From Leucoraja erinacea (lineage: Eukaryota): a DNA stretch of 64,000 nt. The stretch is taken from NCBI RefSeq assembly GCF_028641065.1, contig NC_073383.1, positions 13,764,001-13,828,000 of the forward strand, written 5' to 3'. Position numbers and translations under genes: made by a program. Of this stretch, positions 1-60,720 are shown piece after piece. Under the pieces are notes generated by a model, which worked only from the letters and a program-made list of their open reading frames with translations, was not told the origin of the DNA and did not search any database. The first letter of the stretch is position 1, and every line of letters begins with the position of its first letter.

Positions 1-157
1 CTTAGCTGAGGTCTCGAGTATGCGGGGACTACTCTCGAGCATGAAGGAGAGTTACAAAGACCTCCTAGGACCTCGTGTCGACCATGCTGCGAGTATGAGT
101 CGAGGGCAAACTCTTCTGTGGACTCGCGGATTAGGTCGCCGCAGTGGGACAGCCCCT
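1..157. mobile_element. Right end of a PIF/Harbinger-like MITE, truncated by the window start
   Basis: Ends ...gcagtgggacagcccct followed by TTA; same GTGGGACAG terminal core as the MITEs at 14585, 27312 and 61031. Confidence 0.65.
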
Positions 158-800: not shown

Positions 801-824
801 CTGGATCACTGCCCGCTTCGGTCC

Positions 825-869
<45 letters not shown>

Positions 870-2261: not shown

Positions 2262-2495
2262 CTAGTCACATGTTACACAAGTTTAATTTGCAGGCACAAA
2301 AATAACTCAAATCACCATCAAAATAGACAAGCTCTTTTCCTGGACCGTTAATTAGCATTGTTAGTATACATTTACTATAAAAGGTCACCAATTGTAGCAA
2401 ATCTTACTCATAATGCTTCCAGCTAGCACAATAAACACAACATGGAATTCTCTGCCACAGTGTGGATGGTGGGAATGTCCATGGCTCTAGTTAGT

Positions 2496-9273: not shown

Positions 9274-10260
9274 ACGCAGCAGGTCAGGCAGTTTTTGTGG
9301 AGAAAATACGAGCCACAACCTGCACAAAATGAAGATAATTCAAGAAAAATTCCTGAGTCGAACACAAACCAAATGAAAATCAAAAATCAACAGATGAGAT
9401 TTATTCCCAATTCCCAAGTTTCTCACAAATGCATTGACACCCACATGCTTTGTTCATATGCACCACTTCCACTCTTCAATTCAAAAGGCGATGTCTCTTT
9501 CAGCCTTTGCTCCAGTTATAGTATAAATGTAAGAACGCTCATTTTTTTAAAGTCTCCAGAACCTGTCTTAGCAAAATAGTTCTGGTGAAGAAAAGTAGAT
9601 TATGGGTTTTATTAATCATCACAGGATAACAGCACTTATTATTAAGTATAAGTAATCTCAGCAAATAATTCATTTTGGTTCAAATACCACTAAAGCAATT
9701 TGACATTTTAATTCAAATCTAATTACTCTGGAAATGAAAACTTGGTATCAGTAACAATTTCTGTAAAGTTCCAGTGAAAAAGATTACCTAAGTGTCTGAT
9801 GTAATTAAGCCTTTTACCCCTGATGGCAATCTAGTAAATCAGTGTATTTTGCATTAGTTTCAAAAACTCCCTCACGTGAAATTTTCAAATGTCTTTCCTC
9901 CAGTTTATGGTCTCACAAGTATGCTGATTTTCTCTTGATAGGTAAGAGTGCAATGAAATTGAACATGACTAAAGGAGCAGAAAACATAAAACAATAGAAA
10001 ATAAACCTGTAAAATAGAAAAACAAGACAATCAAAAGTAAAGTAAATTGACAAAATTATCCTGTTTGATGGACCTCTTGCATCGTGGACATTTCATTGAC
10101 AGCTGTCGAGGGAGCATAACTGAACACACATTATAAATGGCAAAATGCAAATTGCTGGAGTAACTCAGCATGTCAGGTGGCATCCCTGGAGAATATTATA
10201 GGTGATGGTTCAGGTTGGGGCCCTCCATCCGCATTTTGTGTCGGGGCTCTTTTTCCTACA

Positions 10261-12170
10261 CATTGCACACTCTCCATAATGTTTGGGACAAAGACCCATC
10301 ATTTATTTATTTGCCTCTGTATTCCACAATTTGAGATTTGTAATAGAAAATATCACATGTGGTTAAAGTGTAGATTGTCAGATTAGAAATTACAGCAATG
10401 TTTATACATAGTCCCCCACCCCCCATTTCAGGGCACTATAATGTTTGGGACACAGCAGTGTCATGTAAATTAAAGTAGTCATGTTTAGTATTTTGTTGCA
10501 TATCCTTTGCATGCAATGACTGCTTGAGGTCTGTGATTCATGGACATCATCAGTTGCTGGGTGTCTTCTCTGGTGATGCTCTGCCAGGCCTGTATTGCAG
10601 CCATTTTTAGCTTATGCTTGTTTTGGGGGCTAGTCCCCTTCAGTTTTCTCTTCAGCATATAAACGGCATGCTCAATTGGGTTCAGATCGGGTGATTGACT
10701 TGGCCACTCAAGAATTGACCATTTTTTCAGCTTTGAAAAACTCCTTTGATACTTTATGATCATTTGTTGCTTTGTTTGGGATCATTGTCTTGCTGTACAA
10801 ATGAGCCGGCCAATGAGTTTTGAGGGATGTGTTTGAACTTGAGCAGATAGGATGTGTCTATGCACTTCAGAATTCATTATGCTACTACCATCAGCAGTTG
10901 TATCATCAATGAAGATAAGTGAGCCAGTACCTTCAGCAGCCATACATGCCCAGGCCATAACACCCCCACCACCGTGTTTCACAGATGATGAGGTATGCTT
11001 TGGATCTTGGGCAGTTCCTTCTCTCCTCCATACTTTGCTCTTGCCATCACTCTGATATTAGTTAATCTTCGTCTCATCTGTCCACAAGGCCATTTTCCAG
11101 AACAGTGGTTGCTCTTGTATGTGCTTCTAGGCAAACTATAACCAGGCCATCCTATTTTTTTGCAGCTAACCAGTGGTTTGCATCTTGCAGTGTAGCCTCT
11201 GTATTTCTGTTCATGAAGTCTTCTGCGGACAGTGGTCATTGACAAATCCACACCTGACTCCTGAAGAGTGTTTCTGATCTGTCGGACAGGGATTTTTCTT
11301 TATTATAGGGAGAATTCTTCTGTCATCAGCTGTGGAGGTCTTCATTGGCCTGCCAGTCCCTTTGACATATCTATTCTCCATGGCCTTTGTAGACCAGTGA
11401 GGTGTTGAATTGTTTATTAACTTTATTTGCTTGGTTTTGCTGCGTTGTTCGTACTTGTGTTTTATGTTTTTTAATTTATTGTTTGGATTTTTGTATGTAA
11501 TTTATGCGCCTCGTGTTAGTTGTATGTTCTGTTGTTCTGCCTGTTTTATGATGTCTTGCTTGTTTTCTTTTTTCTGTACAGCACTTTGGTCAGCTTTGGT
11601 TGTTTTTAAGGTGCTTAACAAATAAAGTTATTATTATTATTATTTACGATTAGTAAGCTCACCAGTGCTCTTTTTCTTTTTAATGATGTTCCAAACAGTT
11701 AATTTTCGTAAGCCTAAGGTTTGACTGATATCTCTAACAGTTTTATTCTAGTTTCTCAGTCTCATAATGGCTTATTTGACTTTCATTGGTACAACTTTGG
11801 TCCTCATGTTGATAAACAGCAATAAAAGATTCAAAGGTGATGGAAAGACTGTGGGAAAGGCGAGGAAATGTGCTGCGAGCTCTCTTATACCTGCATTAAG
11901 GAGGCATTTAAACACACCCGAGCAATTACAAACACCAGTGAAGCCATGTGTCCCAAACATTATGGTGCCCTGAAATGGGGGGACTATGTATAAACACAGC
12001 TGTAAGTTCTACATGGTGAAACCAAAATGTATAAAAATGGCCTTTAATAAAATTTGACAATGTGCACTTTAACCACATGTGATGTTTTCTATTACAAATC
12101 TCAAATTGTAGAGTACAGAGGCAAATAAATAAATGATGGGTCTTTGTCACAAACATTATGAAGGGCAATG
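10261..12170 (-). mobile_element. Tc1/mariner (DD34E, IR/DR-type) DNA transposon, defective
   Basis: About 200-bp TIRs with inner and outer direct repeats (cataatgtttgggaca), TA at the right end (12171-12172). Frameshifted transposase across ORFs 10979..11251, 10782..10982 (KHGGGGVMAWACM) and 10485..10763 (WPSQSPDLNPIEH). Confidence 0.93.
11365..11642 (+). mobile_element. LINE 3' end (L2-like) nested in the Tc1 transposase gene
   Basis: tgtacagcactttgg...aaggtgcttaacaaataaag(tta)n tail; the Tc1 sequence cagtccctttg|cgattagtaagc resumes after it. Confidence 0.7.
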
Positions 12171-14352: not shown

Positions 14353-14584
14353 TAAATTTCTGGTCTGTTGTTGCTACGTACCATTTTCAGTGCTTGTTCC
14401 GATATCTCTTTTTTGATCATTTGACCACATGGCCTTTTAGACTTTATCTTTCGTGCATTACATTGTTGCCTTCGTACACGTTTGACATGGTAATTCATTT
14501 TCCACTTAATCCCTTCAGCAAACTCTTGGTTTCAACTGTTTTTACACTTGCTGCATTTAAAACAGACAGTTTGTGTGATCCTTA

Positions 14585-14810
14585 TGACCCTGTCCCACTT
14601 AGGAAACCTGAACGGAAACCTCTGGAGACTTTGCGCCCCACCCAAGGTTTCCATGCGATTCCCGGAGGTTATTGTCAGTCTCCCTACCTGCTTCCACTAC
14701 CTGCAACCTCCGGCAACCACCTGCAACCTCCGGGAACCGCACGGAAACCTTGGGTGGGGCACAAAGTCTCCAGAGGTTTCCGTTCAGGTTTCCTAAGTGG
14801 GACAGGAGCA
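14585..14810. mobile_element. 226-bp palindromic MITE, PIF/Harbinger-like
   Basis: About 85-bp near-perfect TIRs (tgaccctgtcccacttaggaaacc.../...ggtttcctaagtgggacaggagca), flanked by TTA/TGA. Second copy at 61031-61256. Confidence 0.9.
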
Positions 14811-15044
14811 TGAGTCAGGATCACAAAACTGCTTATAACTGTTAGGTACATCTGAATAGAGTCACCATTGTAATGCACCAAAGATAGAAATGAGAATAGA
14901 GATCACACAAGGTTATTTATCACTCAACCATTGAGGAATCATGTACTGGTTCGGAGACAAGTATAGATCCATCCCTTCTCCTGGGTTTGCATTTACATAC
15001 CCACGTCACTCTCCAGGACAGTAGGGAGAAATCTCTCCCCAATG

Positions 15045-15290
15045 ATAGGCACCAAAGAGTAAGTCAGTGGGTCAGAGAGCATCTCTAGAGAATAGGAACA
15101 GGTGACGTTTCAAGTCGAAACCCTTCTTCAGACTGAGAATCAGAGGAAAGAGAGCCCCTGACTCCCCGTCTGAAGCAGGGTCTCGACCTGAAATGTCACC
15201 CATTCCTTTTCTCCAGAGATGCTGTCTGGCCCGCTGAGTTACCCCTACTTATTGTGCCTATCTTCGGTTTAAACCAGCTTCCTATGCAAT
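15045..15290. mobile_element. Fold-back PLE derivative with two opposed hammerhead-like motifs
   Basis: Minus-strand motif at 15104-15131 and plus-strand degenerate motif at 15170-15197 inside inverted terminal blocks. Confidence 0.75.
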
Positions 15291-17014
15291 CTCTCTCCAT
15301 TCCTGCTTTGTAAGAGAGGCTGTTTTAATGCCTCTGAGCCAGTGATCAACCCATCTAATTACGCAAATGTCTCATGTCATAGAAACATTTCTGCAACCAG
15401 AAGCTGCCAAGCCTCTATCAATAGCCTATCCTGGTCAGCCAGGAGCAATCCAAACATGCACCTTAAATGAAGGCTTTACTGACAATGTGGAGGCACATTC
15501 ATGACTTTCCTGCTGGATGAACGGTTGCAGATCTTAACTGTGTACATAATGTCCAGTAGAACAATCCCTTTGCCCAACAGGCTTGTGCTCAATCTCTGTC
15601 AAGTCACTGGTCCCCTCATCTCAACTAACCTTAAACTACACGCTCACTAACTCCACCTTTAACATGGTGCAGACGTGCTGGAATCTGTAAAGTGAAGCAC
15701 AGGATTTTGGTTCTTCCTTCTTAAGCCCACTTACCGTTAATCTACTGCTCTCCCATTCCTACTCCAACGGAACAAATATTAGAAAGGAAGAACTTAATAT
15801 GCCCTTAAACAGCGTATGCACGGGATGATAGACACAAAATGCTGGAATAACTCAGCGGGACAGGCAGCATCTTTGGAGAGAAGGAATGGGTGAAGTTTCG
15901 AGGTTGAGATCTTTCCTCAGACTGGGGATGGGTGGCGTTTCGGGTTGAGACCCTTCTTTAGACTGAGCAGTTTCATGTATCTCCTTATGCTGAATTGGAA
16001 GAGGGACAAACAATCACAGCTAGTCTGCAAGGCTGCTGTTTCAGCTTGCCCTGTTCTTCCCTTCTCTGGCAAGGAAAACCAGTGAGGATTTTCCTAAATG
16101 CTTCTGGGCTCTAATCTGTGCAGATATATCCAACTGTTTCCTTGAGTTTTGCTGCAAGCAGAAAAGTCGCCTTGAGTGTAAGTTAAAAGACACCTTGCAC
16201 AGTGCCCAGCAAATGCCAGCTTCTCTCTCAGTAAATGACCATGCATCATTCAGTTAGCTTATGCTATAATGTTTCCACATGCTCATACAGGGAATATGCC
16301 AGCTCAGCAGGATTTGTAGTCAATGGCCATCCCCAGGTAAGGAATGGGTTTCCTCTTGGCGGGTACCCAGAAGTCACTTTTGATCAAAGGTTGGGGGAAG
16401 GAAAAGTAGTGCTGGAGAGATTCAGATTCAGATTCAATTTTAATTGTCATTGTTTGTACAGTACAGAGACAACGAAATGCATTTAGCATCTCCCTTGCAG
16501 AGCGACATAGCAAACGATTTGAATTAAAAAAATAATAAGTGTCCGGAGGGGGGGGGTGGTGATTGGCAGTCACCGAGGTACGTTGTTGAGTAGAGTGACA
16601 GCCGCCGGAAAGAAGCTGTTCCTCGACCTGGGTGCAATTAAGAGGGCAAGCAGGATGTTGAACTTCTATTTAAATGCATCAGCACTGCATTGCGATGCGA
16701 TATCCCAATGTCCACGGAATTCCCAACAGCAGTGGAGGTCTCGACCCTGCAATCTACATTAACAGTTAGCTTGTGTTATACTTATAGGTCATACTTGTCG
16801 CAACCATCTAGTGTGCAACCATTGTGCCTGGAAACATGATCACAGGGGCAACCTGCAAGTATTGTCTTTCTGCTGACTGGATCACAGGCAACAAAGGCGT
16901 TTCACTGCACCTCGATGTACGTGACAATAAACTAAACTGAAAATGACTGAACTAAGAATAAAGCACCAGAGACTACGACAGCCCCCCACACCTCTACTTC
17001 TTCCGACCAACCTA

Positions 17015-21907: not shown

Positions 21908-22732
21908 TGTGGTAGTCTGGCGCGCTGACCTCGACCGGGCTGTGGCCAGGCGATAACTCTCAGACACCTCGTCCTACTTATCCTTAGACCATGACCCCAC
22001 AGACGAGCACCAGACCTTAATATGACACGCAATTTCTGATTTTATTACTTTCGGCTCTCTGCCCTCTAAAGCCTCCAAACTTATCGTTCCCCAGCCCCGC
22101 ACGGCCCGATTTTATCTTCTCCCCAAAATCCACAAACAGAACTGTCCTGGCAGACCCATTGTTTCTGCTTGTTCATGTCCCACTGAATTAATTTCCACAT
22201 ACCTCGACTCCATCTTATGCCCCCCTGGTCCAATCCCTCCCTACCTATGTCCAAGACACCTCACACACTCTTCGTTCTTCAATGACTTCCATTTTCCAGG
22301 CCCCCACTCCCTCATCTTTACCATGGACGTGCAGTCACTCTATAACTCCACCCCCCACCAGGAAGGTATTAAAGCCCTCCGTTTCTTCCTCGACCGCAGA
22401 ATCAGCCAATTTCCATCTACGAATACTCTTCTCCACCGAGCAGAGCTGTTCCTTACCCTCGACAACTTCTCCTTTGACTCCTCCCACTTCCTCCAAATCC
22501 ACGGCAGAGCTATGGGCACTCGCATGGGCCCCAGCTATCCCTGCCTCTTTGTAGGGTACGTCGAACAATCACTGTTCCAGGTGTACACTGGCCCTATCCC
22601 CAAACTCTACCTCCGCTACATTGACAACTGCATCGGTGCTGCCTCTTGCACCCATGCAGAACTCACTGACGTCATCAACTTCATGACTAATTTCCATCCG
22701 GCACTTAAATTCACATGGATCATCTCCGATAT
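21908..22732 (+). mobile_element. Penelope-like element, internal reverse transcriptase fragment
   Basis: FYLLPKIHKQNCPGRPIVS, then MDVQSLYNS, GRAMGTRMGPSY and YLRYIDN (ORF 22323..22874): PLE RT motifs with YIDD decayed to YIDN. Confidence 0.92.
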
Positions 22733-23999: not shown

Positions 24000-26514
24000 A
24001 TTGGGCATTAACTGGATCTGATGTGTTGTGCCTTTCTGAAAAGGAAATGGCTGGACAAGTGTAAATATTATTCGCTTTGGTTAAAATAACATAAAAATAG
24101 AATATATTTTCAATGGAGAACTACTGTTAAATGGTGATATGGGTTCCGATTTGCATGTGCAAATAAGTGGGAAGTAACTTCTTGAAGGCCTTTAATGCAA
24201 AGAGATTGAAGTCCAGATTAAGAAAGTCTGGCTACAATTGAACCGGGCTTTCGAGAAGCCATAACTGGAATTCCATGTATGTTCTCATCCACTTACAACA
24301 GGGAAGATATCCTTGCCCTAAATGCAATGCAACAAAGGCATGGAAGGAATCAAGTGAAGAGTGAGTTCTGTGAGAAGATCAAACTTGTAATCTCTTACGA
24401 TTTTAAGAATGAGCGGCAATCGTATTGAAACTATACAGATTCTGAATAAACTTGAAACGGTAGACATGACAGTCTCAAGGCGAAAAGTCAAATATTGTTA
24501 GCCCAGTGTCGGAGGTTTTATTTCTTAAAGAAGTGTGAATCTTCAGGATTGTCTACTTCTTAGAACTGTGGATCCTCAATCATTAAGCATAGTTAAGGGG
24601 TGCGATCAACAGATTTTCAAGTTGCGGAAACCAGGAATGTGGAGATGAAGATGAGAATAATGGTGGAGGCGGAGTGAACCAAAGGCCATGTGAACCAAGG
24701 CCATTATCTACATCGATCAGTTAGTGGTACATATCAATTAATTCAAAATTGATTATTTTAATCATGCAATATTGATCATAAGCCCATAAAATATGACCTT
24801 AAAAGTTGGACGAGGTTTTAGCCTTGCAAAGCAACAAAATTGTCTTTCCACAGTATCAGAAAACTAACAGAAATGCAGTAGCAAAGGAAATATTAAATCT
24901 TACTAGTATTAGTTTGCAGTGTAAATGTAGAATGGAAAGGGTGAAAGAATATAATTTCTGCATATTTTCTTGTTTAAACCCCAGGGAACGTTTAAAGCCA
25001 TCTAAACAAGTATAAGAAAGCCAGGATAAAGGAAATTGCATATTTAATATTTCAAAGCATGCTTCCTGTGTTATTAGGATGCAATAAAATCACACCCAGT
25101 AACTTCACTGCCAATTTTACTGAGTACTAAATGGTTATGTTCTATTTTCCTGTTTATAACATTACTTAATAGGCACTTTTTCCCCCCACAAAGTGAATCA
25201 GATTTTTTTTCCAGTTTGCCTTCAGTCCAAAAGAATTAAATGCAGTGGGCAGGTCTTTAGACCTTGGTGAAACAACAGAATAAACAGTAGGTAGTGCGAG
25301 TGTGCAGAGGAATGGGAGTGGAAGGACAAGGTTTAGTCACTAGTCTTATTGATGGCGAGGAATAAATTATAAAGAGGATTGCTTTCAGGCCTTGCAGGCT
25401 TCAAGTACAAAGGGAAAACCTTTTACAGTCCATGCACATTGTCTTTACTCAGGACATTGTTCATTATGCACTGGTCACCATACTCAAGATTCCCACCTAC
25501 CATTGCCATGCTAAACGGTAATAGCTGTTCCCTCTTACATGGGGTTATGGGGAGAAGGCAGGAGAATGCGGTGAGGAGGGAGAGATGAACGAGCCATGAG
25601 TGAATGGCAGAGTAGACTTGATGGGCAGAATGGCCTCATTCTACCTCTATTCCTTTTGACTTTATGACGTCGAATATCTGTGTGGCCAAAACGGGGAGCA
25701 AAATCTTTTTGTGGGTCTCAAGCCTCCATTTATTTTCCAATCAAATGTCACATCTCCTTCAGCTCAAGAGCAGCCAGCCAAACACGGGCAGGTATATTTC
25801 AATTACAACAAATGGCTTAGTGCTTCCACACGTTCCATTTAGTGTTACAACTGCCGCTACCATGCCAAGTGCAACTGTTGTCTGCAAATCATCTTGTGTC
25901 TTGTCTTGGGAGTTGCAGGGAAAAGCAGATGCAAACTTAAAATGACAGTATTTGCTGCATTAAAAAGGTGTTTTACAATGTTCATTTGTGAACTGTTCTA
26001 CCTTTTAAAAAAAAGTACTATACTGGCCTCTACATTTCCACTCCCAAAAGTCTAATGGAGATTTTTTTACTTGTTGAGAAAGAGGAGGCACAGCTTGAGC
26101 TTAAGGATCGCAGTATTATGCTAAGCACCATTAATTCCCCAGAGTGTACACAGACCACGTACCTTCCGCCTGAGCGTGACATTGCGTTTTGTTTATTGTC
26201 ACGTGTACCGAGGTACAGTGAAAATCTTATGTTACGTGCAAACCAGTCCACGAAAGACAATACATGATTATAATTAAACCATCCACGATGTACAGATATG
26301 TGATAAAGGAAATAACATGAATAACATTCAGAGCAAGATAAAATGAGTAAAGTCCGATCAAAGATAGTCCGAGGGTCTCCGTTGAGGTTGGTCGTAGTTC
26401 AGGACTGCTCTCGAGTTGTTGGTAGGATGGCTCAGTTGCCTGATCACAGCTGGGAAGAAACTATCTGTGATATAGAGCCAAAGCCCACTCAAAGAACAAC
26501 CAAGCGTTAACTGT

Positions 26515-26718
26515 TTAAGAAGGAACTGCAGATGCTGGAAAATCGAAGGTACACAAAAATGCTGGAGAAACTCAGCGGGTGCAGCAGCATCTATGGAGCG
26601 AAGGAAATAGGCAACGTTTCGGGCCAAAACCCTTGGGTTTCGGCCCAAAACGTTGCCTATTTCCTTCGCTCCATAGATGCTGCTGCACCCGCTGAGATTC
26701 TCCAGCATTCTTGTGTAC
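26515..26718. mobile_element. Fold-back (hairpin) PLE derivative with 15-bp TSD
   Basis: About 84-bp inverted arms (26548-26631 and 26636-26719) plus a one-sided tail; ccaag(c/a)gttaactgt at 26500-26514 and 26719-26733. Confidence 0.9.
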
Positions 26719-27311
26719 CCAAGAGTTAACTGTGCAAGTTGTAACTTCAATTAAAGACTGGCTTCAGCACAGAGACTGATACAGTTGGTGCCTGCAAACA
26801 ATCACGGCCACTTGGTTCAAGAGCAGTGAATATCAACCTCAATCACCAATTGGCAGTACAAAATACAATCAAGTGTGTCACAGTTTGCCCCAGTGAGTCA
26901 TGGCCAACAAAAAACATGTCAGGACAACACAAATTTAACAAAAGATAGACACAAAATGCTGGACTAGCTCAGCGGGACAGGTGGCATCTCTCGTGAGAAG
27001 GAATGGGTGACATTACGGGGGACCCTTCTTCAGACTGCCAAATTACAATTAATGCGCTCAATGGGGATTTGATTAAGGCATTTTTTAAAAGAAATTGAGA
27101 TTATCCGGTTAAAATGAGAATTGGTTCAGAATATACTGAAATAACTGGAGATTATAAGGGGGCATGATTGTTTCCTCGCCACTGGGATACTGCCTGTCCC
27201 GCTGAGTTACTCCAGCTTTTTGTGTCCTTCTTCGGTTTAAACCCATCTGCAGTTCCTTCCTACACAATGTTAACAAATGCAGGGTGTGCGTCAGTAAACA
27301 CGGCAATCTTA

Positions 27312-27759: not shown

Positions 27760-28186
27760 CAGGGGTCGGAAACCTTGTTTTGCATCGGGGCCAGGACGCA
27801 TGTCTGAGCGGATGGCGGGCCACATCTATCACGTGTACACATGGATCCCGCCGCGGATGGCAGGCACCAAATCACGTGTTCACAGAAGGTAGACAAAAAT
27901 GCTGGAGAAACTCAGTGGGCGAGGCAGCCTCATGCAATCCTTGCATGCCTCACCCACTGAGTTTCTCCAGCATTTTGTCTACCTTTGATTTTTCCAGCAT
28001 CTGCAGTTCTTTCTTAAACGTGTTCGCAGAAGGTGCATTTCCGTGCCGGCGGCTTTGCGCAGGATGCGGTACAGCCAGAGCTCGGGCGCGCTGGGGGCGC
28101 TCGACGGGCCGGATGACTACGGAAAAAACAAATCCGCATGCGGGCCGGATGATATCGGGTTACAGGCCGTAAGTTGCCGACCTCTG
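27760..28186. mobile_element. hAT (Charlie-like) MITE
   Basis: TIRs caggggtcggaaacct / aagttgccgacctctg; decayed 8-bp flanks gtgttcag / ttgtacaa. Confidence 0.8.
27891..28017. mobile_element. Fold-back PLE derivative nested in the hAT MITE, 17-bp direct repeat
   Basis: acgtgttc(a/g)cagaaggt at 27874-27890 and 28018-28034; inverted arms around an atgcaatccttgcat loop. Confidence 0.85.
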
Positions 28187-28599: not shown

Positions 28600-30208
28600 C
28601 GGAATTTTAGAAACTCATGTCAGTCTCAGTCACAGAGGCCGACGTCAGGAAATCCTTCAGAGGGGTGAATCCTCGAAAAGCACCTGGTCCTGATGGTATA
28701 CCCAGTCGTGTTCTAAAAACCTGAGCGGACCAACTGGCGGGAGTTTTTACGGACATTTTCAACCTCTCACATCTGAGGACTGAGGTCCCCACCTGCTTTA
28801 AAAGGGCATCAATTATACCGGTGCCCAAGAAGAGTAAGGTGACGTGCCTCAATGACTATCGGCCAGTGGCACTAACGCCGGTGGTGATGAAGTGCTTTGA
28901 GAGGCTGATCATGGAGCAAATCAACTCCTACCTCGCCAAAAACCTGGACCCACTGCAGTTCGCTTACCGCCACAACAGATCAATGGTGGATGCGATCTCG
29001 CTGGCCCTCCACTCCACACTGGACCACTTGGACAACAAAACTCATATGTCAGGCTGTTATTCATCAATTACAGCTCGGCATTCAACACAATCATCCCCTC
29101 CAAACAGGTTACCAAACTCGCAGAACTGGGTCTCTGCGCATCTGCAGCTGGATCCTCGACTTCCTCATCCACAGACCACAGTCTGTTCGTATTGGTGGAA
29201 ATGTGTCAGCCTCGATAACAATCAGCACGGGAGCACCTCAAGGCTGCGTGCTCAGCCCCCTGCTGTACTCACTCTATACCCATGACTGCGTAGCCAACCA
29301 CAGTGCGAACTCCATCATCAAGTTCGCTGACGACAACACTGTTGTGGAACGTATCACTGATGGGGATGAGTCAGAATATAGAAGGGAGATCGAGCAACTG
29401 TCCATATGGGCAATAACCTGGCCTTCAACACCAGCAAAACCAAGGAACTGATTGTGGACTTTGGAAGGAGTAGGAGGGGGACCCACAGCCCCATTTATAT
29501 CAACGGGTCGATGGTTGAAAGGGTCAAGAACTTCAAATTCCTGGGCGTGCACATCTCTGAAAATCTTTCCTGGTCCGAGAACACTGATGCAATTATTAAG
29601 AAAGCTCATCAGCCCCTCTACTTCCCGAGAAGATTACGGAGAGTTGGTTTGTCAAGGAAGACTCTCTCTAACTTCTACAGGTGCACAGTGGAGAGCATGC
29701 TGACCTGTTGCATCATGGCTTGGTTCGGCAATTTGAGCACCCTGGAGAGGAATATACTACAAAAAGTAGTAAACACTGCCCAGTCCATCATCGGCTCTGA
29801 CCTTCCTTCCATCGAGGGGATTTATCGCAGTCGCTGCCTCAAAAAGGCTGGCAGTATCATCAAAGACCCACACCATCCTGGCCACACACTCATCTCCCTA
29901 CTACCTTCAGGTAGAAGGTACAGGAGCCTGAAGACTGCAACAACCAGGTTCAGGAATAGCTACTTCCCCACAGCCATCAGGTTATTAAACCTGACTCGGA
30001 CAAAACTGATTATTAATAACCACTTTCTGTTATTTGCACTTTACCAGTTTATTTATTCATGTGTGTATATCTTTATATCATGGTATATGGACACATTTAT
30101 GTGTTTTGTAGTAAATGCCTACTATTTTCTATGTGCTTAAGCAAAGCAAGAATTTCATTGTCCTATACAGGGACACATGACAATAAACTCACTTGAACAC
30201 TTGAACTT
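28600..30208 (+). mobile_element. Rex1/Babar LINE, 5'-truncated, frameshifted RT
   Basis: [61 protein letters not shown] and SGRRYRS across ORFs 28821, 28990 and 29406; tail aataaactc(acttga)n. Confidence 0.93.
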
Positions 30209-30635: not shown

Positions 30636-30856
30636 TGTATAGGAAGGAACTGCAGATGCTAGTTTATACCAAAGATAGCCACAAAATGCTGGAGCAGCTC
30701 AACGGGTCAGGCTGCATCTCTGGAGAAAAGGAATTGTGTCTGAAGAAGGGTTCCAACTAGAACATCGCCTATTCCTTTTCTCCGGAGATGCTGTCTCACC
30801 CGAAACGTCACCTATTCCATCGCTCCATAGATGCTGCCTGACCCACTGAGTTACTT
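30636..30856. mobile_element. Fold-back PLE derivative
   Basis: tgtataggaaggaactgcag start and inverted terminal blocks. Confidence 0.7.
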
Positions 30857-33562: not shown

Positions 33563-35160
33563 GGTAGCTTACAACCCAGTGGTATGAACATTTAATTCTC
33601 CAATTTGAAGTAATGCTATCCTTTGACTACCCTTGTCTCCTTTCATTTGTGGCCTTCTGTCACTTACTCCACTCATCTGCCAATTAGCCAACTATTGTAG
33701 CTCATTGCTCAAAGTAGCTAGTCCAGTTCAAGTCTTCCTCAGTCAAATCAATTTTTTGCAATTTAATGCTTGTACTGAAATATACCCTTGAATGGTCATA
33801 GGATGACTTAAACAGCAACTGTTTCTGGCACTGTTACTGATCATAATTGCCAATTCCTTCTCCTGCTTCCACACAACAGCATGTCTAGGAATGTATTGCA
33901 TCTTTCATGCTTTCTGCACTATTGTCCGTTGTGCAATGCAAAGAGGAGGCCTTTCCTTCCTTCCCATCGCCATGGTCGTTGTTCTTCTGAACTATCGAGC
34001 ACATCTTATTAACTTTGCTCCAGTCTTCAAACACACAAATCTGTACCAATACTAGGTCATAACCAATCCAATACCCCCTTCCAAAGGACAATGACAACCC
34101 CATGGGCTGAGTGGACAGCGGTCCTGCTAGATAGCTATTGACACTATGCAGAAGAGCCCCACTGACCAGACTCAAGACAAGCTCAAGCTAGTTCAGTTCC
34201 TCCATGGGTCGCTATGAGACCCTGCAAATTAGAACATCATTTTGAGACCAGAAGACCTTTCATTACGACACATTCACATCCGCTGTCTGAAACCACGCCG
34301 TTAAAACAACTAGGTTGAAAGGGCAGACGGTTTTCTGGTTGGGAAATTGACATACATCGTATATCAAAAGAAGATGGTCTTTAAATGTACATATTTAAAT
34401 TTACCAGTTAAGAGACTGGTCTTTAAGTTTACTATGAGCAACATCACGGCCATTTTCAAGGTTTATTAATATTTAGATATTTCATTTAAATTTTATGTAA
34501 GCCCTAATTTTACAAAAAAAAAAAAAAAATTCTGTGCAAGGCACTGTCATAGAAAATATTATACATTTAAAAAAAAAAGTTTATTTTGGCATAAGATCTC
34601 AACAAATCAGTTACAAACAATAAGAAAAGACACCAAGTGGTATGTTGGAGATGTGTTGACATTGTTTTGCTAACATAGTTCATCTCAAATGGAATTAGAT
34701 GAAGGCTGATCTACCAAACTTTGTCACGGGAAATAAAAATCATGTAAATGGGAGAACACTGATAACTGTCCCTCCTGAGAGTACACTTCACTGTTTTGAG
34801 AATGTCCTGAAGTTTAAACATTATTTTGGTCATTTTCCTTCGAGGAGCAAACGTTATGAGACTCTAAACATGTGGCAATTTGTATTTGAACTCACAGTTA
34901 CACCAAAGCAGAAAACTGCTTTTGCCTCAGGGGATAGATAGATAGATTCTTGATTAGTACAGGTGTCAGAGGTTTAGGGGAGAAGGCAGGAGAATGGGGT
35001 TAGGAGGGAGAGATAGATCAGCCATGATTGTATGGTGGAGTAGACATGAAGGGCCAAATGGCCTGCACCTATTCCTCGACCTTCAGACCTTAACCTTGAA
35101 AGAAGGATTTAATGGGTTCTGCCCCTCACACTAACACTGGCCAGGGTTCCATGAAAAGGC

Positions 35161-35331
35161 GTTTAAGAAGGAACTGCAGATGCTGGAAAATCGAAGGTAC
35201 ACAAAAATCCTGGAGAAACTCAGTGGGTGCAGTTCAGGCCGAAACCCTTCTTCGGCCCTAAACGTTGCCTATTTCCTTCGCCCCATAGATGCTGTGGCAC
35301 CCGCTGAGTTTCTCCAGCATTTTTGTGTACC
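35161..35331. mobile_element. Fold-back PLE derivative with a perfect 14-bp TSD
   Basis: ttccatgaaaaggc at 35147-35160 and 35332-35345. Confidence 0.9.
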
Positions 35332-35463
35332 TTCCATGAAAAGGCCATGTGAGGACTTTACTATTATTTACACAAGAGACACAAGAATCTGCAGATACTG
35401 GAATCTTGAGCAAAAACCAGGCTGTTAAAGGAACTCAGCAGATGAGGCAGCATCTAAGAAGGG

Positions 35464-39770: not shown

Positions 39771-39876
39771 TGTGGTTGGAGACAGTAGGAATGGTTGGAG
39801 AACTGAGAAAGGGGAGCGGATGGAGAGAGAGGGGTAAAGGAAGGGCTACTTGAAGTTAGAGAAGTCAATGTTCACA

Positions 39877-40376
39877 TCTATTGCGTCCGCTGCTCTAGAT
39901 GTCAGCAGATCTATATCGGTGAGACCAAGCGGAGGTTGGGCGATCGTTTCGCCGAACACCTCCGCTCGGTCCGCAATAACCAAGCTGACCTCCCGGTGGC
40001 TCAGCACTTCAACTCCCCCTCCCACTCCGTCTCCGACCTCTCTGTCCTGGGTCTCCTCCATGGCCACAGCGAGCAGCACCGGAAATTGGAGGAACAGCAC
40101 CTCATATTCCGTTTGGGGAGTCTGCATCCTGGGGGCATGAACATCGAATTCTCCCAATTTTGTTAGTCCTTGCTGTCTCCTCCCCTTCCTCAGTCCCCCT
40201 GCTGTCTCCTCCCATCCCCCAGCCTTCGGGCTCCTCCTCCTTTTTCCTTTCTTGTCCCCGCCCACCCCCGCCCCCGATCAGTCTGAAGAAGGGTTTCGGC
40301 CGGAAACGTTGCCTATTTCCTTTGCTCCATAGATGCTGCTGCACCCGCTGAGTTTCTCCAGCTTTTTTGTGTACCT
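39877..40376 (+). mobile_element. Young Penelope-like element 3' fragment (GIY-YIG and terminal repeat) nested in an older antisense PLE
   Basis: IYIGETKRRLGDRFAEHLRS...VAQHFN...RKLEEQHLIFRLGSLHPGGMN; 12-bp TSD tcaatgttcaca at 39865-39876 and 40377-40388. Confidence 0.92.
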
Positions 40377-40554
40377 TCAATGTTCACACCGCTGGGGTAT
40401 AAGCTGCCCAAGTGAAATACAAATTTAATTATATTCTGAGAAACGCCATGGGATATTTTACAGCATTAAACATTTTTGTAACAAAGCGAGTTATGTTGTT
40501 GCCTTTCACCAATTTGTTTCAATATCACAAAGTAAAACAATAATTTATCCTTAC

Positions 40555-43400: not shown

Positions 43401-43671
43401 AGAGGGATTCATGGTTGCTGTTGATATTGCCCGGTTTGACTTTGTAGCCCGTTATAACATGCAGGCCTTGCCATAATCTATGGGCAAGCACTATGGGTAT
43501 TTCCTAACTTCTTCAATTCAAGTGCGATATTTAAACACAATTGCAACCCTATCAAACTCCACCAAGACCAGCAGTCAAATAAGCTGCATAAGTGCATAAG
43601 TGCATAAGTGCATAAATAAAATGCATAAGTGAGTCATGTTATCCCAGGACAAGGAGCAATGGAATAAAGGA

Positions 43672-44098
43672 AGATAGAGGCAAAAAGCTGGAGTAACTCA
43701 GCGTGTCAGACAGCATCTCCAGAGAAAAGGAATAGGTGATGTAGATTAGTGGCTCATGCTATGAGTCATGCATTTGTAGTTGCGCCCACGAGCTTGTTAG
43801 CATCGCGGTCTGCTGCATTCCGTTAGTCTTAAAGTGAACTCTTAAGTGAGAAGTTGTATTGCTTGTAACCATTAAACTCTATATAACCTGGTGTGAGGCC
43901 ACTGTTATTATAAGGACCACAAATCAACAGGTGATGTTTCAGGTCGAGACCTTTCCCCTGACTCTCAGTCTGAAGAAGGGTCTCGACCCGAAATTTCATC
44001 TACTCTTTTTCTTCAGAGATGCTGTCTGTCCTGCTGAGTTATTCCTGCTTTTTGTGTCTATCTTCAGTTTAGACCAGTATGTGCAGTTCCTTCCTACA
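43672..44098. mobile_element. Fold-back PLE derivative with a perfect 15-bp TSD
   Basis: caatggaataaagga at 43657-43671 and 44099-44113; hammerhead-like motif at 43970-43997. Confidence 0.88.
43740..43929 (+). mobile_element. 190-bp solo LTR nested in the PLE derivative
   Basis: TGTAG...CAACA termini, 5-bp TSD GGTGA, internal ATTAAA. Removing it restores aataggtgatgtttcaggtcgagacc. Confidence 0.75.
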
Positions 44099-44187
44099 CA
44101 ATGGAATAAAGGAGTTTGGAACTAGTTCCTCTCCTGTCCATTCCAGGCACGTTTACAAGTCATGTATTGGTCAATACATTAGGTATT

Positions 44188-44422: not shown

Positions 44423-46333
44423 AAGGTATTAAACAGCATAAGTGTTTGGGCTCCCAACAGGCAGAGCCAACAAGGTTGGAAACAGTTCAATAAAATGACA
44501 ATGAAGTATTCTTCGGGGAAATTCCCCCCCCCAAAATCCTGCTGGACCTTAATAGGCTGGGAACCTGACATTGGTCAGGTTTCAAAGGAAAAGTAAGAAA
44601 TTCAACTTTTTTTTTTAAAGATCGCTTACTGTATCCTAATGAATAGAGAAATCTAACACAATATTCCTGACCCTAGGCCATATCTTCTCTCCTAAGATAT
44701 ATTGTTGATATCCTTATCGGGCAAACATCATTTCTCTGCATCCACATTTTTTGGTGTGAAGATTGCCTCAGTGTTGATTTCAGCACTAACTTTACGAGGT
44801 GTATGAATAAAACCATTTTCAAAATCTACAATTTTAACAACGTGCTTTCAATTTCAAGAAATCTCCAATTGCCGCTATGGGGGCCCAGTGCCACCAAGTT
44901 AAAACCCTACCCAACCCAGGAGGAAACAATTAATTTATAAATAGGAAGAGAGCTGCCAAATCTGCTCTGCTTAGTAAAAATCCAGCTTTTAATAGTTAAT
45001 CCAATTGTATCACTCATTTACATTTTAAAAAAAAATAATATTCCTTTTATGGTCTATTTGTCTAAATGATGATGATTTACAAAATGCGGAAATATTGTTA
45101 TGGGAGCAGTAATTAAATATATTGACATTCAGAAATAAACGATCCTCAATAATTGTAGCTTTGCGGTTTGAAAATGTTTATGTCTCGGAGACAGTCTGTG
45201 ACTGCAATGTTAATGTGCCTGAAACCTAGGCAGGGACAATCAACACTAAATATTTTTGAATTCCAAATTAAAAATTAAGTACTGAAATGTAACTGTGCTG
45301 TTTTTAAGAATAAATTGGTGCCTGTTGCTCAAGCCTCGAAAATGTTAATTCATTCAAGAAAATGGTGCTCACCAAGATGCCAGTTCTTTAGCAGTACTGT
45401 GTACGCATGATGTTCTATTATTCATTGAGCAACACAGCAGTTCAGCCTTCATAAAGTCACCAGGCAATCTGACAGCATCTAGATTTGATTCGTCATCCAA
45501 GCAAAAGGAATTAATTGAAGTTCGCCCATTTCTTTTCATGATCATTAAGCAAATATCGCAAATGTCAGACGATGATTTCTATTGAACTAAGCTCACAAAC
45601 TTTCTCATGTTCACCCAGTTTCATAGTTTGTAGACTTTTCTTGTCGATGTTTTCCCTGCCATCTCAGGTTTCTGCCTGCCTGGACAAGCAATGGCAAACC
45701 TTGGCAATGCTGCAAAATGCTGTCCCCAGTCTCTTATGTTTTCATAATTACTGTTGCACCATATGTTCTGCCACTTAACTATGCAGTGAGAGAACAGGGA
45801 GAAAAATTGTCAAAAAATATATTTTCACCCACTCGTGCAGCTGCTTCATTGCTATCTGCCTCTCGAAGAGGCAAGTGTCACCCCAACATAGAAACAGCAA
45901 CGATGATCGGTAGAGGCAAATTACTGAAATAGTTTCCGTCAAATTTGGCATCTAGAAATGCAGGTTTTAACGGTTTGGATCTCACAGGCAGTTCTGAAGG
46001 TCAGTGCGTCGGCTCCAGAAGGATCAGGTATTCTTCAATAGCTGAAGTAACACTCAAACAGTTCCACGGCAAGCTCGGAGGTCAGACAATGGCAGATCTA
46101 ACTTCCCTCGTTACCAAAGAACTCACCATCGTGTCCAGTGGCAGACCACTGGCATGTTGGAGAGGCTGATTTCACTTTAAGTGCGGCCTTCAGCTCTAGA
46201 CAGAACCAGTTAGCACAGTAACAATCTTCTCAGATAATAATCCAATTGCAACATATTTAAATATTACCTACAAATGGGAACAAATTATGATTAACATTTA
46301 TTTCTGTGAGCTCTCAAATTGCCTCTCCAAAGA

Positions 46334-46523
46334 ATTGTGTAGGAAGGAACTGCAGATGCTGGTTTAAACCAAAGATGGACACACAGAAAGCTGGGGTAAC
46401 TCAGCGGGACGGACAGCATCGCTGGAGAAAAAGAATAGGTGACGTTTCGGGTCGCAACCCAAATGTCACCTATTCCTTTTCTCCAGAGATGCTGTCTGAC
46501 CTGCTGAGTACTCCAAATGTTAG
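46334..46523. mobile_element. Fold-back PLE derivative with a 14-bp TSD
   Basis: tgcctctccaaaga at 46320-46333 and 46524-46537; pivot at ggtgacgtttcgggtcg|caacccaaatgtcacc. Confidence 0.88.
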
Positions 46524-46624
46524 TGCCTCTCCAAAGAGTGCTGCTTTGCCTGTTATTTATGCTTCCTTAAAGCACTCCCTAATAAGAGTCCTTAAGTGAC
46601 CTATCCAAATTAAGTAATTTGTAT

Positions 46625-54049: not shown

Positions 54050-55178
54050 CCTCTAGATTTACAATATATGCATCGTCCACGTATAATAAGAACCCGCATC
54101 CGTGGGAGGTTTACCCTCCACTGCAGCCTTCCCACAGCTCTGTAGATTCCCTTCATCAGAAGGATGAGCAAGGTGTATGGAATTGGGAGGGCAAGTTGGG
54201 GAACATCAGGATCCAGGGCATCGGAAATGTCCTCATTCTTCAGGGAACGGGGGTTCCCCTCCCCTACTATAGATGAGGTTCTCACCAGGGTCTCTTCAAT
54301 ACCCCGTAACACTGCTCTCTCTCCCCATCCCCCCCACTCGTAACAAGGGCAGAGTCCCCTTAGTCCTCACCTTTCACCCCACTGGCCGTCACATACAACA
54401 AATAGTCCTCCGTCATTTTCGCCACCAACAACGTGACCCCACCACTCGCCACATCTTCCCATCTCCCCCGCTGTCTGCTTTCCGCAAATACCGCTCCCTC
54501 CGTAACTCCCTGGTCAATTCTTCCCTTCCCTCCCGCACCACCCCCTCCCCGGGCACTTTCCCTTGCAACCGCAAGAGATGCTACACTTGTCGCTTTACCT
54601 CCCCCCTCGACTCCATTCAAGGACCCAAGCAGTCGTTCCAGGTGCGACAGAGGTTCACCTGCATCTCTTCCAACCTCATCTATTGCATCCGCTGCTCTAG
54701 ATGTTAGCTGATCTACATCGGTGAGAGATCTTTTCGCCGAACACATCAGCTCGGTCCACATTAACCAACCTGATCTCCCGGTGGCTCAGCACTTCAACTC
54801 CCCCTCCCATTCCAAATCCGGCCTTTCTGTCCTGGGCCTCCTCCATGGCCAGAGTGAGCACCACCGGAAATTGGAGGAGCAGCACCTCATATTCCGCTTG
54901 GGCAGTCTGCACCCTAGCGGCATAAACATTGAATTCTCCAATTTCCGGTGGCCCATGCTGTCTCAACCCCTTCTCAGCTCTCCCTCAGCCCTTGGGCTCC
55001 TTCTCTTCCTTTCTCTTTTCTTCTCCCCCCCCCCCCACCTTACATCAGTCTGAAGAAGGGTTTTGGCCCGAAACGTTGCCCATTTCCTTCGCTCCACAGA
55101 TGCTGCTGCACCCGCTGAGTTTCTCCAGCATTTTTGTCTACCTTCGATTTTCCAGCATCTGCAGTTCCTTCTTAAACA
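54050..55178 (+). mobile_element. Penelope-like element, 5'-truncated (RT C-terminus, GIY-YIG endonuclease, terminal repeat and tail)
   Basis: RVPLVLTFHP, PGTFPCNRKRCYTC, FTCISSNLIYCIRCSRC, VAQHFN and KLEEQHLIFRLG; ends gttccttcttaaaca. The 5' boundary is approximate. Confidence 0.93.
55050..55077 (+). ncRNA. Minimal hammerhead ribozyme motif (PLE type)
   Basis: CUGAAGA-A-GGGU(UUUG)GCCC-GAAAC-GUU with palindromic AACGUU. Confidence 0.55.
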
Positions 55179-55550: not shown

Positions 55551-55889
55551 TACAAAATCAACTCAAACACTTTGGTGATCCATTTAAAAAAAAAAGACAA
55601 TTACCAGAAACCAAGTTATTTTGACAAGAAGTTATCTATAGATTTATGAATCTGACCCTCTCAATGCCCCTCCTAAATTCTAGAGAGTATAAACCAAGTC
55701 CATATCCAGTCAGTTCTTGCATAAGAAATCCATGGAGAGAGAATCAGAATGTATGAGCTATGCGTTCTGTTGACAAGTTGGCAATTCCATAGAATTGCTT
55801 GCTAGTTGCATTACATGCCAGGGCATTTCACACTTCCATCCCCGTGCACTGCATCATTGAAACATGTTGGAGGGCAAATACTGGTACAC

Positions 55890-56585
55890 TAAAGATAGAT
55901 ACAAAAAGCTGGAGTAACTCAGCGGGACAGGCAGCATCTCTGGAGAGAATAAGGGTCTCGACCCAAAATGTCACACATTCCTTCTCTCCAGAGATGCTGC
56001 CTGTCCCGCTGCTGTTCCGGGAGGCAGAGAGAGCCAATGCGATGACGCTGATGTCAAAAGCCTTGAACTGCCTGCTTACTACTCCCATATGTCTCCTCCA
56101 TTGTCAGAGTGAGGCTAAACACAAATTAGAGGAATAGCACCTCATATTTTGCTTGGGCAGCTTACAGCCCAGTGGTACAAATATTGATTTCTCTAACATC
56201 AAGCAACCCCGGCATTCCCTCTCTCTCTATCCCTCCCCCACCCAAGTTACACTAGCTTCTCGTTTTCACCCAACAAACAGCTAGCAATGGCCTGTTTCCT
56301 TTATCATCGCTCCATTTTTGCATATCTTTCATTCATTGTTCTTTATCTCTCTACCTCATTGTTTATATCTCTCATTTCCCTTATCCCCAAGCAGTCTGAA
56401 GAAGGGCCTCAACCTGAAACACCACCCATTCCTTCTCTCCAGAGATGCTGCCTGTCCCGCTGAGTTACTCCAGCTTTTTGTGTCTAACTTCAGCATGATC
56501 AAGGTCTGAAGAAAGATCCAGAGACAAAATGTGATCTGCCCACACCCTCACAGATGCTGGCGGTCCCGCTGAGTACTTCCAGCAT
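55890..56585 (+). mobile_element. PLE cluster: 5'-inverted segment, GIY-YIG remnant and terminal repeats
   Basis: LLHCQSEAKHKLEE; degenerate hammerhead at 56396. Confidence 0.8.
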
Positions 56586-57839: not shown

Positions 57840-60720
57840 TTTTAAGCACCTCTCACCACTAACTCCTTAGGCAGTGTGATCCAGATTTCATCCACACTCT
57901 GGGTGAAAAAATGTTTCCACCAACCCTCTCTAAATCTCCCTACCCTTAACAAATGCTCTCTGGTTATAGGCATCTCTGCCACTGGAAAAAGTTTTGCAAT
58001 TTACCCTCTCCATGCCCTTTCAAATTTTATACACCACATTTAGGTCCCCTTCAACTTACCCCATTCATAAATGAAACAACCCCAACCTATCCAGCATCTC
58101 CCCATAACCGTAATATTATATTCCAGGGTAAATCCTGATTAATCTCCTCTGTCTAATCATCCATCCTATTGTTGGGCAACCAGAACTGTACATGTTACTT
58201 CTGTTGTCGTTTAACTAATATTTTATACACGTGCACTATAACCTCACTCCTCTTACATTAGCTGTATCCCATGTACTTCCTTATCTACCTTATCTAGCCG
58301 TGCTGCTGCCTTCAGGGATCTTTACACAAAGACTTGAAGTTGTAGAAATGTATAAAATTATAAAAGGACTGGACAAGCAAGATGCAGGAAAATGTTCCCA
58401 ATGATGGGGGAGTCCAGAACCAGGGGCCACAGTCGAAGAATAAAGGGGAGGCCATTTAAAACTGAGATGTGAAAAAATCTTTTTCACCCAGAGAGTTGTG
58501 AATTTGTGGAATTCTCTGCCACAGGCCAAGTCACTGGATGAATTTAGAAGAGGGTTAAATCGAGCGCTAGCGGAATCAAAGGATATGGGGAGAAGGCAGG
58601 CACAGGTTACTGATTGTGGATGATCAGCCATGAATGGCGGTGTAGGCTCAAAGTGCCAAATGGCCTCCTCCTGCACTTATTTTTTGTTTCTATAACCCTC
58701 TGTTCCTCAGTAGTCCTGCGATCCTACCAATCTGTACGTACATCCTAGCCTTATTAGTTCTTTCAAACTCTTACATTCATCACAATTAAATTCCATCGTT
58801 TCTCTACGTATCTTACCAACTAATCTACTCTCCTCACGATCACCGACATTAAATGCCATTTTCAAGTTTTATTCATTTGCTTCTTGCCTGCCACATGCTG
58901 TTATCATTATGATATACGATGAACAGCAAGGATTCCAACACCAAACACTGTGGTACACCAGTCACAGACTTAAAAATCGCAAATACAGACCACAAACATC
59001 ACCCTTTGCCTCCATCGCCAAGCCAGTTTCCGATCGAATTTGCCAAATTCCCTTGATTCCAAGGACTCTTACCTTTTGAACCAGTTTCCCATAGGACCTA
59101 CCAAAGTCCATATGTCCATATCACGGACACTACTCTCCACAGCATTCACAGACATTTCCTCAAAAAATTCAAAATAGTCACACAGAATCTCAATGCTGAC
59201 TACACATGATCAATCCCTGCCCTCCAAATGCAAACTAACCTGAGGGTTTAAAAAAATAATTTATCTACCTATGGTTGGATTTATTGGCCTGTAACTAACC
59301 GGATTATCCCTGTTGCCTTTCTTGAATGAAAGAACCACGTTTACTGTCCAGTCATCTGACACCTCTTCCATAGCAAAGAATATATGAATATATCCCAGCA
59401 CCTCCTTCCCTGTTTCTAAAACAGTAGCCCTGGATACATCTTATCAGGCCCTGGGAATTAACTCAGCAGGACAGGCAACATTTCTGGAGAGAAGGAATGG
59501 GTAACATTTCGGGCCGAGACCCTTCTTCTCTCCAGAGATGCTGCCTGTCCCACCGAGTTACTCCAGCTTTTTGTGCCTATCCAAGCCGACTAAGATATCT
59601 AATACCTCCTTTTAAATAGAAATTTGCTCCGGAACTCCACTGTTTCCTTCCATGAATTCCCCAATGATCAAGCCTTTCCAACATAAATACAAATGGGGAT
59701 TATTTAAACCTCCTTCTGCTCGATGCACAGAAACCCCCTTTATTTCTAATGGGCCATATTCTCATTCGGGTTACCCCCTTGCCCTTTATATAGTTGTTGC
59801 CAAGGTCGCCAGGACTCAACACAGTACTTACCTTTCATCATGATGGGAACACATTGAACATGGACTTTCACGGTTTAATTGTTGAATGACTCCCACTAGT
59901 CGTACAGTAGATATTCCCAGTCCACTTTTGTTAAATCCTGCCCTACCACATTACAATTAGCTCTCCCCCAACCCAGTACTTTAATTTCCAGTCTATTCTT
60001 ATGCAACAACCTTAAAACTTAAGATGGACACAGATTGTTGGAGTAACTCAGCGGGTCAGGCAGCATCTCCGGAGAAAAAGGATAGGCCTGAAAACTTTAT
60101 TTTATCTCTGTCTGCTTCGTTGTCATCTTTTCCTAGCTAACAATGATCTATTCTACATTTTCATTTATACAAATCTCCTTTTAAGTCTCATTTTCACACT
60201 TTACCCTTCCTTATCTCTGTGTCTATCTCTCCCGACTCTCAGTCTGAAGAATACCCAAAACAATACCCGCTCCTTCTATCCAGAGATGCTGCCTGTCCTG
60301 CTGAGTTACTCTAGGATTTTGTGTCTATCTATGGCCTTAAAACTTAGTTGTGGTCAGTCCAAAATGCTCTTCCACTGACTGATTAGATCACATACCGTCC
60401 ATTCTCAAATGGGACATAACGCCTCAAAAAGCGCTCTCTGGATGGTCTTTCAAAATGGTGCACACCTCTAAGGCTACACACACAAATTAATCATTGGGGT
60501 GGCTGAAATTTCCTTTGTCTATTATTTTTAACCGTTCTTTGTGATTTGTCTACACATCTGACCCTCAATCCCCCTCTGAATGTTTGGAGGTCTCTCGTAC
60601 AACCCCTGCAAAGTGACCATTCCAGTTCTCTTTCTGGGTTGGACCCATATGGCCTCACTTAATTTTAAGTTTCTATTCACCCATTCCCTCGCAAAGGCTT
60701 CTGCGCACCCAGCTGGAGAC
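57840..60720 (-). mobile_element. Long, highly decayed CR1 LINE with younger nested CR1 (58333-58692, plus) and PLE hairpins (59458-59582, 60020-60332)
   Basis: CR1 RT and endonuclease remnants (EAIWV...TLQGLYERPPN in ORF 60528..60731; tcaggccctggg, the reverse complement of PGPD). Confidence 0.7.

Follow-up and report, generated by a model that had tools for sequence, protein, structure and literature searches.

Short head-to-head insertions of a PLE terminal repeat in the skate Leucoraja erinacea, in which hammerhead stem II is an exceptional pivot

We describe here a group of short insertions in Leucoraja erinacea DNA, each of which consists of the terminus of a PLE followed by an inverted copy of itself, within a stretch of 64,000 nucleotides (contig NC_073383.1, positions 13,764,001 to 13,828,000; the window). 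These stubs are real and well formed and their layout is known for PLEs, and a pivot on stem II of the hammerhead carried by the terminus is the exception. We propose that the hairpins are very short pLTR insertions of an endonuclease-bearing (EN+) PLE, in which two separately target-primed cDNAs were joined head to head, a reading to which we give an even chance. The stubs are without a gene and are likely inert.

Results

One arm of the element at 26515 (E1) returned 40 BLAST rows in the 64-kb window, of which the divergent hits at 4382, 35383, 49597 and 56585 were dropped before counting, together with that at 10148; here, at 10148-10265, fragments of what may be a decayed inverted arm come after a PLE arm, and the locus is omitted from all counts. 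There are eleven head-to-head elements (Table 1): the six listed in the initial annotation, all of which are present, and five new ones (E7, E8, E9, X30, and X55). Positions within the repeat are given on an h scale, on which C3 of CUGAAGA is 1, stem II occupies 9-20, and cleavage falls after h28; inner ends were read from alignments and hand-corrected, and are accurate to a few bases. The arms of the elements differ by 5-20%, those of E1 being 95% alike. The eleven junctions, in three subfamily variants, are all different and none recurs within the window, which supports the earlier suggestion that the elements arose separately.

Table 1. Head-to-head elements and two reference copies of the PLE terminus, in window coordinates
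Feature	Coordinates	Strand	Description
E1	26515-26718	.	15-nt TSD, 1 mismatch; blunt join h7/h9
E1 left TSD copy	26500..26514	+	15 nt, 1 mismatch against 26719-26733
E1 tailed arm	26515..26634	-	subfamily A PLE 3' end, tail terminus to h7, full stem II
E1 tail-less inverted arm	26635..26719	+	h9 to h93, second full stem II
E1 right TSD copy	26719..26733	+	
E2	27885-28019; with TSD 27874..28034	.	17-nt TSD, 1 mismatch; tail on right arm only, left arm tail-less; small self-complementary filler at junction of about h50/h55
E3	35161-35334; with TSD 35147..35345	.	14-nt TSD; junction h3/h13, 3-nt overlap; tailed left arm without h56-24
E4	43672-44098; with TSD 43657..44113	.	15-nt TSD; junction h10/h-19, 2-4 nt overlap; left arm split by 190-nt secondary insert
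E5	46334-46523; with TSD 46320..46537	.	14-nt TSD; junction h15/h15
E6	59459-59581	.	no TSD; left arm without outer end; junction h3/h37, 4-nt overlap using own subfamily letter; h37 is 3' of the cleavage site
E7 (new)	26927..27277	.	16-nt TSD, 2 mismatches; filler of about 130 nt between tail-less arm (ending h-3) and tailed arm (starting about h35-49)
E8 (new)	15030..15299	.	12-nt TSD, 1 mismatch; junction about h-25/h-15
E9 (new)	60010..60346	.	perfect 12-nt TSD; no tail on either arm; short arm to h30, long arm includes about 170 nt of upstream PLE UTR
X30 (new)	30636..30855	.	no TSD; tailed arm to h33, inverted arm from h-1, filler; partial tandem
X55 (new)	55862..56493	.	no TSD; arm to h38, inverted arm from h7, 3-nt overlap beside a mismatch; followed by long copy that extends to endonuclease ORF end
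Non-inverted subfamily A copy	39875..40379	+	GIY-YIG/CCHH ORF end, hammerhead, tail-less terminus, 12-nt TSD
Long tailed subfamily A copy	54500..55177	+	CX4CxxC linker motif 5' of endonuclease

TSDs of 12-17 nt flank eight of the eleven elements (each p<=0.006 against 3000 random flank pairs), and for E1-E5 the score is reached by at most 0.13% of the 3000 pairs, confirming the 14-17 bp repeats that had been described around five of the first six elements, with none for E6. Six of the 12 non-inverted copies tested also have a TSD (null p<=0.013), the copy at 55175 lying outside the TSD search. By eye, the TSDs often overlap terminal letters of the element by 2-6 nt (outer ends of E1-E4 and E7, and 40377-40379, with 6 nt in E2), which suggests target-RNA pairing at priming. 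The density of the repeat favors reading the elements as assembly artefacts or as chance neighbors, but we consider this highly improbable: TSDs surround both arms in 8/11 elements, which counts against it, as do the divergence between arms and a contig of run X1 that spans the right arm-flank junction of E1 (34 letters in the arm, 1 difference in 282). The artefact reading may apply to X30, X55, and E6, which have no TSD.

Contigs of four public runs were compared with the window, E3-E9 lying outside this comparison. One X7 contig begins exactly at the E1 right TSD, preceded by 59 unplaced letters, which fits an empty E1 site, the join to the left flank not being seen in that contig; X3 and X19 contigs enter the E1 arm by only 26-27 letters, under the 31-letter threshold. 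For contigs that leave E1 at its axis, the usual continuation leads through the core (602-904 records per run in the loose-end consensus, with an agreement of 0.46-0.49). The summed contig depth of the arms exceeds that of the flanks by a factor of about a million, a figure that is not a copy number. Pattern scans for more copies found none in viral contigs and none in metagenome contigs; four single matches in bacterial records among genome contigs were taken as chance, and none of 600 pattern matches in a protein scan of metagenomes was confirmed.

The contigs also bear on whether the hairpins are copied as a unit, as a self-propagating, MITE- or retrozyme-like non-autonomous family. X1 contigs that are 11-13% divergent from the window span the E2 flank junctions, and one X7 contig, with 11 differences and 2 gaps, spans an axis like that of E1, such that similar junctions exist elsewhere. 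Nonetheless, we regard such a family as very unlikely, given that no two junctions agree among eleven elements of three subfamily variants, that no stem II turn is found among the 15 best-supported contig joints, most of which represent subfamily differences (with at least 2471 further joints), and that the recurrence of E2 is better read as cargo of a host element with terminal inverted repeats. E2 lies inside a multi-copy element (27760-28186), which we take to be hAT-like, with 14-nt terminal inverted repeats and no clear 8-bp TSD; two X1 contigs, with 12 differences each, pass from E2 over its right junction into the host sequence, and the left junction is spanned by two X19 contigs. E2 may have been amplified as cargo of the host, or the site may be a repeated target. 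MITEs have symmetric terminal inverted repeats, a short fixed TSD, and homogeneous copies with one interior. The MITE-like character proposed at the outset holds for the shape of the skate hairpins, but within the window their ends are asymmetric in 7/8 elements, their TSDs are 12-17 nt long, and no junction is common to any of the eleven.

The terminal repeat (pLTR) is represented, in majority sequences, by a young subfamily A and an older subfamily B, and copies have two fixed 3' termini about 33 nt apart, at h128-131 (tailed) and h93-98 (tail-less). Both majorities match the minimal hammerhead, with the core CUGANGA..GAAA..UH, the extra base, G10.1-C11.1, and a palindromic 15.2-16.2. The core, extra base, a stem II of 4-5 bp, GAAA, and a two-base helix III are all on the sense strand, and helix I is about 2 bp by eye, compared with the 4-5 bp tested for the minimal hammerhead. 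Minimum-energy folds of the repeat do not give the hammerhead fold, and the hammerhead family is absent among the 10 Rfam matches at E<=1; eight of these ten weak matches are to microRNA models, all under the gathering score. By its sequence the terminal repeat reads as a minimal hammerhead, a putative ribozyme. We also note that 5 nt of the tail-less terminus (h92-96) are complementary to the core (h3-10) in a shifted register in both subfamilies, and that in the subfamily A fold the tailed end is paired with the hammerhead core; the start sites might be linked to the ribozyme through RNA structure.

The non-inverted copy at 39875..40379 holds both the ORF end and the repeat, and thus ties the repeat to its parent PLE. 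Its endonuclease fragment (39876-40166) has two Cys within the core and His residues downstream (CCHH), matches Pfam GIY-YIG with E=6e-4 (20.5 bits, under the 22.6 cut-off), and has 26 homologues, the best at 86% in Leucoraja erinacea, with one (P0021) carrying RVT_1 as well as GIY-YIG. A CX4CxxC motif is read in 54501-54704, and a CX2-5CxxC linker before the endonuclease marks Neptune/Nematis (PMC8557442). On these motifs and homologies, the hairpins are termini of an EN+ PLE, probably of the Neptune type, and the PLE origin and retrotransposition with TSDs that had been claimed for them are supported. The window is without a full PLE copy; a separate remnant at 22026-22721 (+), which from its motifs we take to be a PLE-type RT, has no Pfam match.

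The initial annotation placed the inversion point of four of its six elements in or beside stem II, and supposed that RT stalls, or the RNA ends, at the ribozyme. The null for the inner ends is a uniform distribution over h-30..70, with 21 arms scored (the long arm of E9 being outside this range, and E8 scored as -21/-14 instead of about -25/-15 as read, with the counts unchanged). The breakpoints are not uniform in the window, in agreement with the annotation: core and stem II together hold 11/21 arm ends where 5.0 are expected (p=0.004; by element 8/11, p=0.04), and the core edge, h-3..8, holds six of the 21 (p=0.03). The enrichment foreseen at stem II or at the cleavage site did not appear, with 5/21 arm ends in stem II alone (p=0.10) and 1/21 at the cleavage site (h28-30; 0.6 expected). 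Five of the 21 arm ends lie at h30-38 (p=0.03, in a bin picked post hoc), and E6, E7, X30, and X55 each have one arm ending near the core and the other at h33-38.

Non-inverted copies stop similarly. Eight of 13 stop within h-30..70, the other five being long and outside the range, and six of these eight stop at h-3..8 (p=6e-5), with no difference between inverted arms and non-inverted copies (Fisher p=0.41). Stem II ends are seen in 0/8 non-inverted copies and 5/21 arms, a difference in the direction of the annotation that is not significant (p=0.28). Because non-inverted copies share the core-edge stop, the stop is independent of inversion, and we attribute it to cDNA synthesis rather than to folding; of the proposed stop at the ribozyme, the excess of breakpoints near the core is supported, and this excess is not peculiar to the inverted arms. 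Self-cleavage as the cDNA stop is rejected, with a single arm end at the cleavage site: on a cleaved RNA template the cDNA would reach no further than h29, short of stem II, such that cleavage cannot explain the core-edge stop, and the same count indicates that the RNA is copied uncut.

An alternative to two cDNAs is snap-back, in which a single cDNA folds on a self-complementary word, stem II or another, and is copied back, the endonuclease then cutting at a fixed point, the tail-less terminus, to generate the second end. The longest self-complementary word is stem II in subfamily A (7 nt), whereas in B stem II is one of three 5-nt words, and GAAG/CTTC words linking h37-43 with h3-10 are among the next longest. 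E5, the sole case of a single axial stem II, favors snap-back, as do E6, which fits a fold-back on a 4-nt word, the full nesting of the arms in 4/11 elements (E1, E4, E5, and E9), and the subfamily letters common to both arms. Palindromes at inverted junctions have already been read as self-priming (PMC3846280; Arkhipova 2013), and PMC8557442 attributes the tail to endonuclease resolution. We nevertheless find snap-back unlikely. Stem II alone is not enriched, and as a general snap-back primer it is not supported, the single axial stem II being seen in 1/11 elements. E1 does turn beside stem II as had been described, but not on the stem, and it keeps two complete stems with a blunt join and no overlap; E2 turns far away. 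Even in E5, two letters past the axis differ from the majority of the tailed strand, which costs two changes under snap-back and one CpG-type change for a mid-stem join, albeit in one old copy. What stands of the proposed pivot is the axis of E5 and the excess in the core region.

The outer ends are also informative. An arm ends at the tail-less terminus h93-98 in 9/11 elements, the same terminus that ends 8/13 non-inverted copies, and tailed and tail-less ends are paired in seven of the eight elements in which both outer ends are at a terminus (p=0.025 relative to independent choice). For the tail-less end, the null is that copying stops anywhere; a fixed endonuclease cut, which PMC8557442 favors for the tail, lies outside it. 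In five of the nine elements with a tailed arm, the tail-less arm extends further in, by hand counts of about 5 nt in E2, about 10 in E8, 31 in X55, 34 in X30, and at least 38 in E7, and simple copying of the tailed arm could therefore not have produced it. A tail-less cDNA, for its part, could not have been the template for the tail.

Comparison of the two arms of an element shows discordance at 8/31 subfamily letters, compared with 51% between elements (p=0.003) and a background of 58/359 (16%), above which the arms do not rise. The shared letters point to one source RNA, although this fits snap-back equally well and does not separate the models. An A/T difference at h60 in 3/7 arm pairs, against 7/190 in the background and at a site picked post hoc, hints that some arms had different templates.

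Long palindromes are unstable, and it is conceivable, although quite unlikely in our view, that the hairpins began as longer and more perfect palindromes, formed by either route, with junctions later reset by deletions between short direct repeats. The junctions of E6 and X55 lie on CTTC/GAAG-type words, which are direct repeats in a hairpin, E3 has an internal gap, and overlaps and non-nested arms alike would be expected from such trimming. However, E1, although young, already has a blunt join at the core edge, the stop is the same in non-inverted copies, and the fillers in E2 and E7 are unexplained by deletion.

Discussion

The arm ends, the non-nesting, and the fixed termini are better fitted by twin or dual priming with end-joining than by snap-back, and we propose a mechanism that borrows both from work on Anolis Poseidon (PMC11167929) and from L1 twin/dual priming (PMC2837659). 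The GIY-YIG endonuclease would nick both strands 12-17 nt apart, giving rise to the TSD, and each 3' end would prime RT, as a rule at the tailed terminus for one strand and, about 33 nt inward, at the tail-less terminus for the other. Uncut RNA would be copied through the hammerhead, and many cDNAs would stop on reaching the core's 5' edge (h-3 to h8), which is probably either the RNA 5' end or a strong pause. The same-sense cDNA ends could pair only via inverted microhomology, and end-joining would use a nearby self-complementary word: stem II once, CTTC/GAAG-type words more often, and otherwise blunt or filler joins. Stem II would thus be one such word and not the driver. A more specific reading, which we hold tentatively and at somewhat less than an even chance, is that the inverted repeat and one-sided tail were left by a dimeric enzyme that primed both nicked strands at two fixed RNA start sites about 33 nt apart, with run-off cDNAs ending at the RNA start just before the hammerhead core.

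Several points weigh against twin or dual priming. The elements are eleven from one window, two of the three strongly non-nested cases (X30 and X55) have no TSD, and later deletions in the center of a palindrome would give the same non-nested arms and CTTC/GAAG overlaps. Moreover, in vitro support for such priming comes from another PLE clade (Anolis Poseidon, of Penelope/Poseidon).

A head-to-head layout is given as general for PLEs (PMC8557442, PMC8969392), and the EN+ PLE insertion unit comprises an inverted 5'-truncated pLTR, a one-sided tail of 30-40 bp, and a TSD (PMC3846280; scheme in PMC8557442, Fig. 2). The skate insertions have the optional one-sided tail, and 8/11 have the adjacent inverted 5'-truncated copy within the TSD. 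In Adineta, Pen2a has an inverted pLTR with a 31-bp tail, a 9-bp TSD, and a 15-bp overlap (PMC3846280), and the skate elements resemble Pen2a, Pen2, and Pen3a in their head-to-head copies, tail at one end, unit-wide TSD, and palindrome or overlap at some junctions; they differ in being stubs of 120-450 nt without an ORF, in TSDs of 12-17 nt rather than 8-10 nt, and in their very high density. The formation of tandem and inverted PLE ends is still called undefined (PMC8557442).

As in L1 twin/dual priming (PMC2837659), there would be two target-primed cDNAs, an inversion within the TSD, and an internal join with or without microhomology, but in L1 twin priming the two pieces come from separate parts of the RNA, with internal sequence deleted, whereas the skate arms are the same stretch with two fixed starts. 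In Anolis Poseidon, the protein is a predicted dimer that cleaves both strands and extends each of them; its template is uncleaved RNA, on which synthesis begins at a pair of adjacent sites with the tail between them (PMC11167929). The skate element would share the two start sites on either side of the tail, the cutting and extension of both strands, and the use of uncleaved RNA, although Anolis Poseidon belongs to the Penelope/Poseidon clade and the skate element has the Neptune/Nematis linker motif; the accessible text of PMC11167929 gives no explanation of inverted copies.

Minimal hammerheads occur in metazoan pLTRs, with opposite-strand pairs 100-700 bp apart in Schistosoma (PMC4209133). 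The putative skate hammerhead shares the core, the extra base before stem II, the G-C closing pair, and the palindromic two-base helix III, but its helix I seems shorter, at only about 2 bp. The stubs are also like non-LTR retrozymes (10.64898/2026.07.22.740005) in being gene-less, hammerhead-bearing, and PLE-derived. However, retrozymes are tandem repeats by definition, whereas the skate copies are inverted pairs or singles, with no tandem units containing a full hammerhead in the window and only short partial tandems (15886-15965 and 30761-30844). The retrozyme preprint, in its accessible text, covers tandem derivatives and does not mention skates. Our literature search found no paper on a skate stub family or on twin priming in PLEs, and older subscription papers (Arkhipova 2006; Evgen'ev and Arkhipova 2005) and supplements may hold the model.

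The stubs could be mis-annotated as MITEs or microRNA hairpins. As minimal, abundant, TSD-flanked copies, they offer a good natural data set for PLE end formation and integration, and if dimeric two-site priming is true, breakpoint statistics from many skate copies could settle the PLE integration step.

Other features of the window

The insert in E4 (43740-43929, 190 nt) is solo-LTR-like, with TG...CA ends and a 5-bp TSD, and is single copy in the window. At 39811-40388, a subfamily A PLE copy with a 12-nt TSD lies inside an older PLE fragment of opposite orientation. A 494-aa open frame rich in S/E/A at 781-2265 (-) is likely a large host exon, and the region 28725-30140 (+) presumably encodes a broken LINE-type RT in three frames. 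There is an assembly gap at about 63100-63570, with 593 N in the window overall. A different hairpin family, at 14581-14814 and 61030-61257, has arms of 87-90 nt that are 93% complementary and a 54-nt spacer; it is unrelated to the PLE end and is probably a true MITE family.
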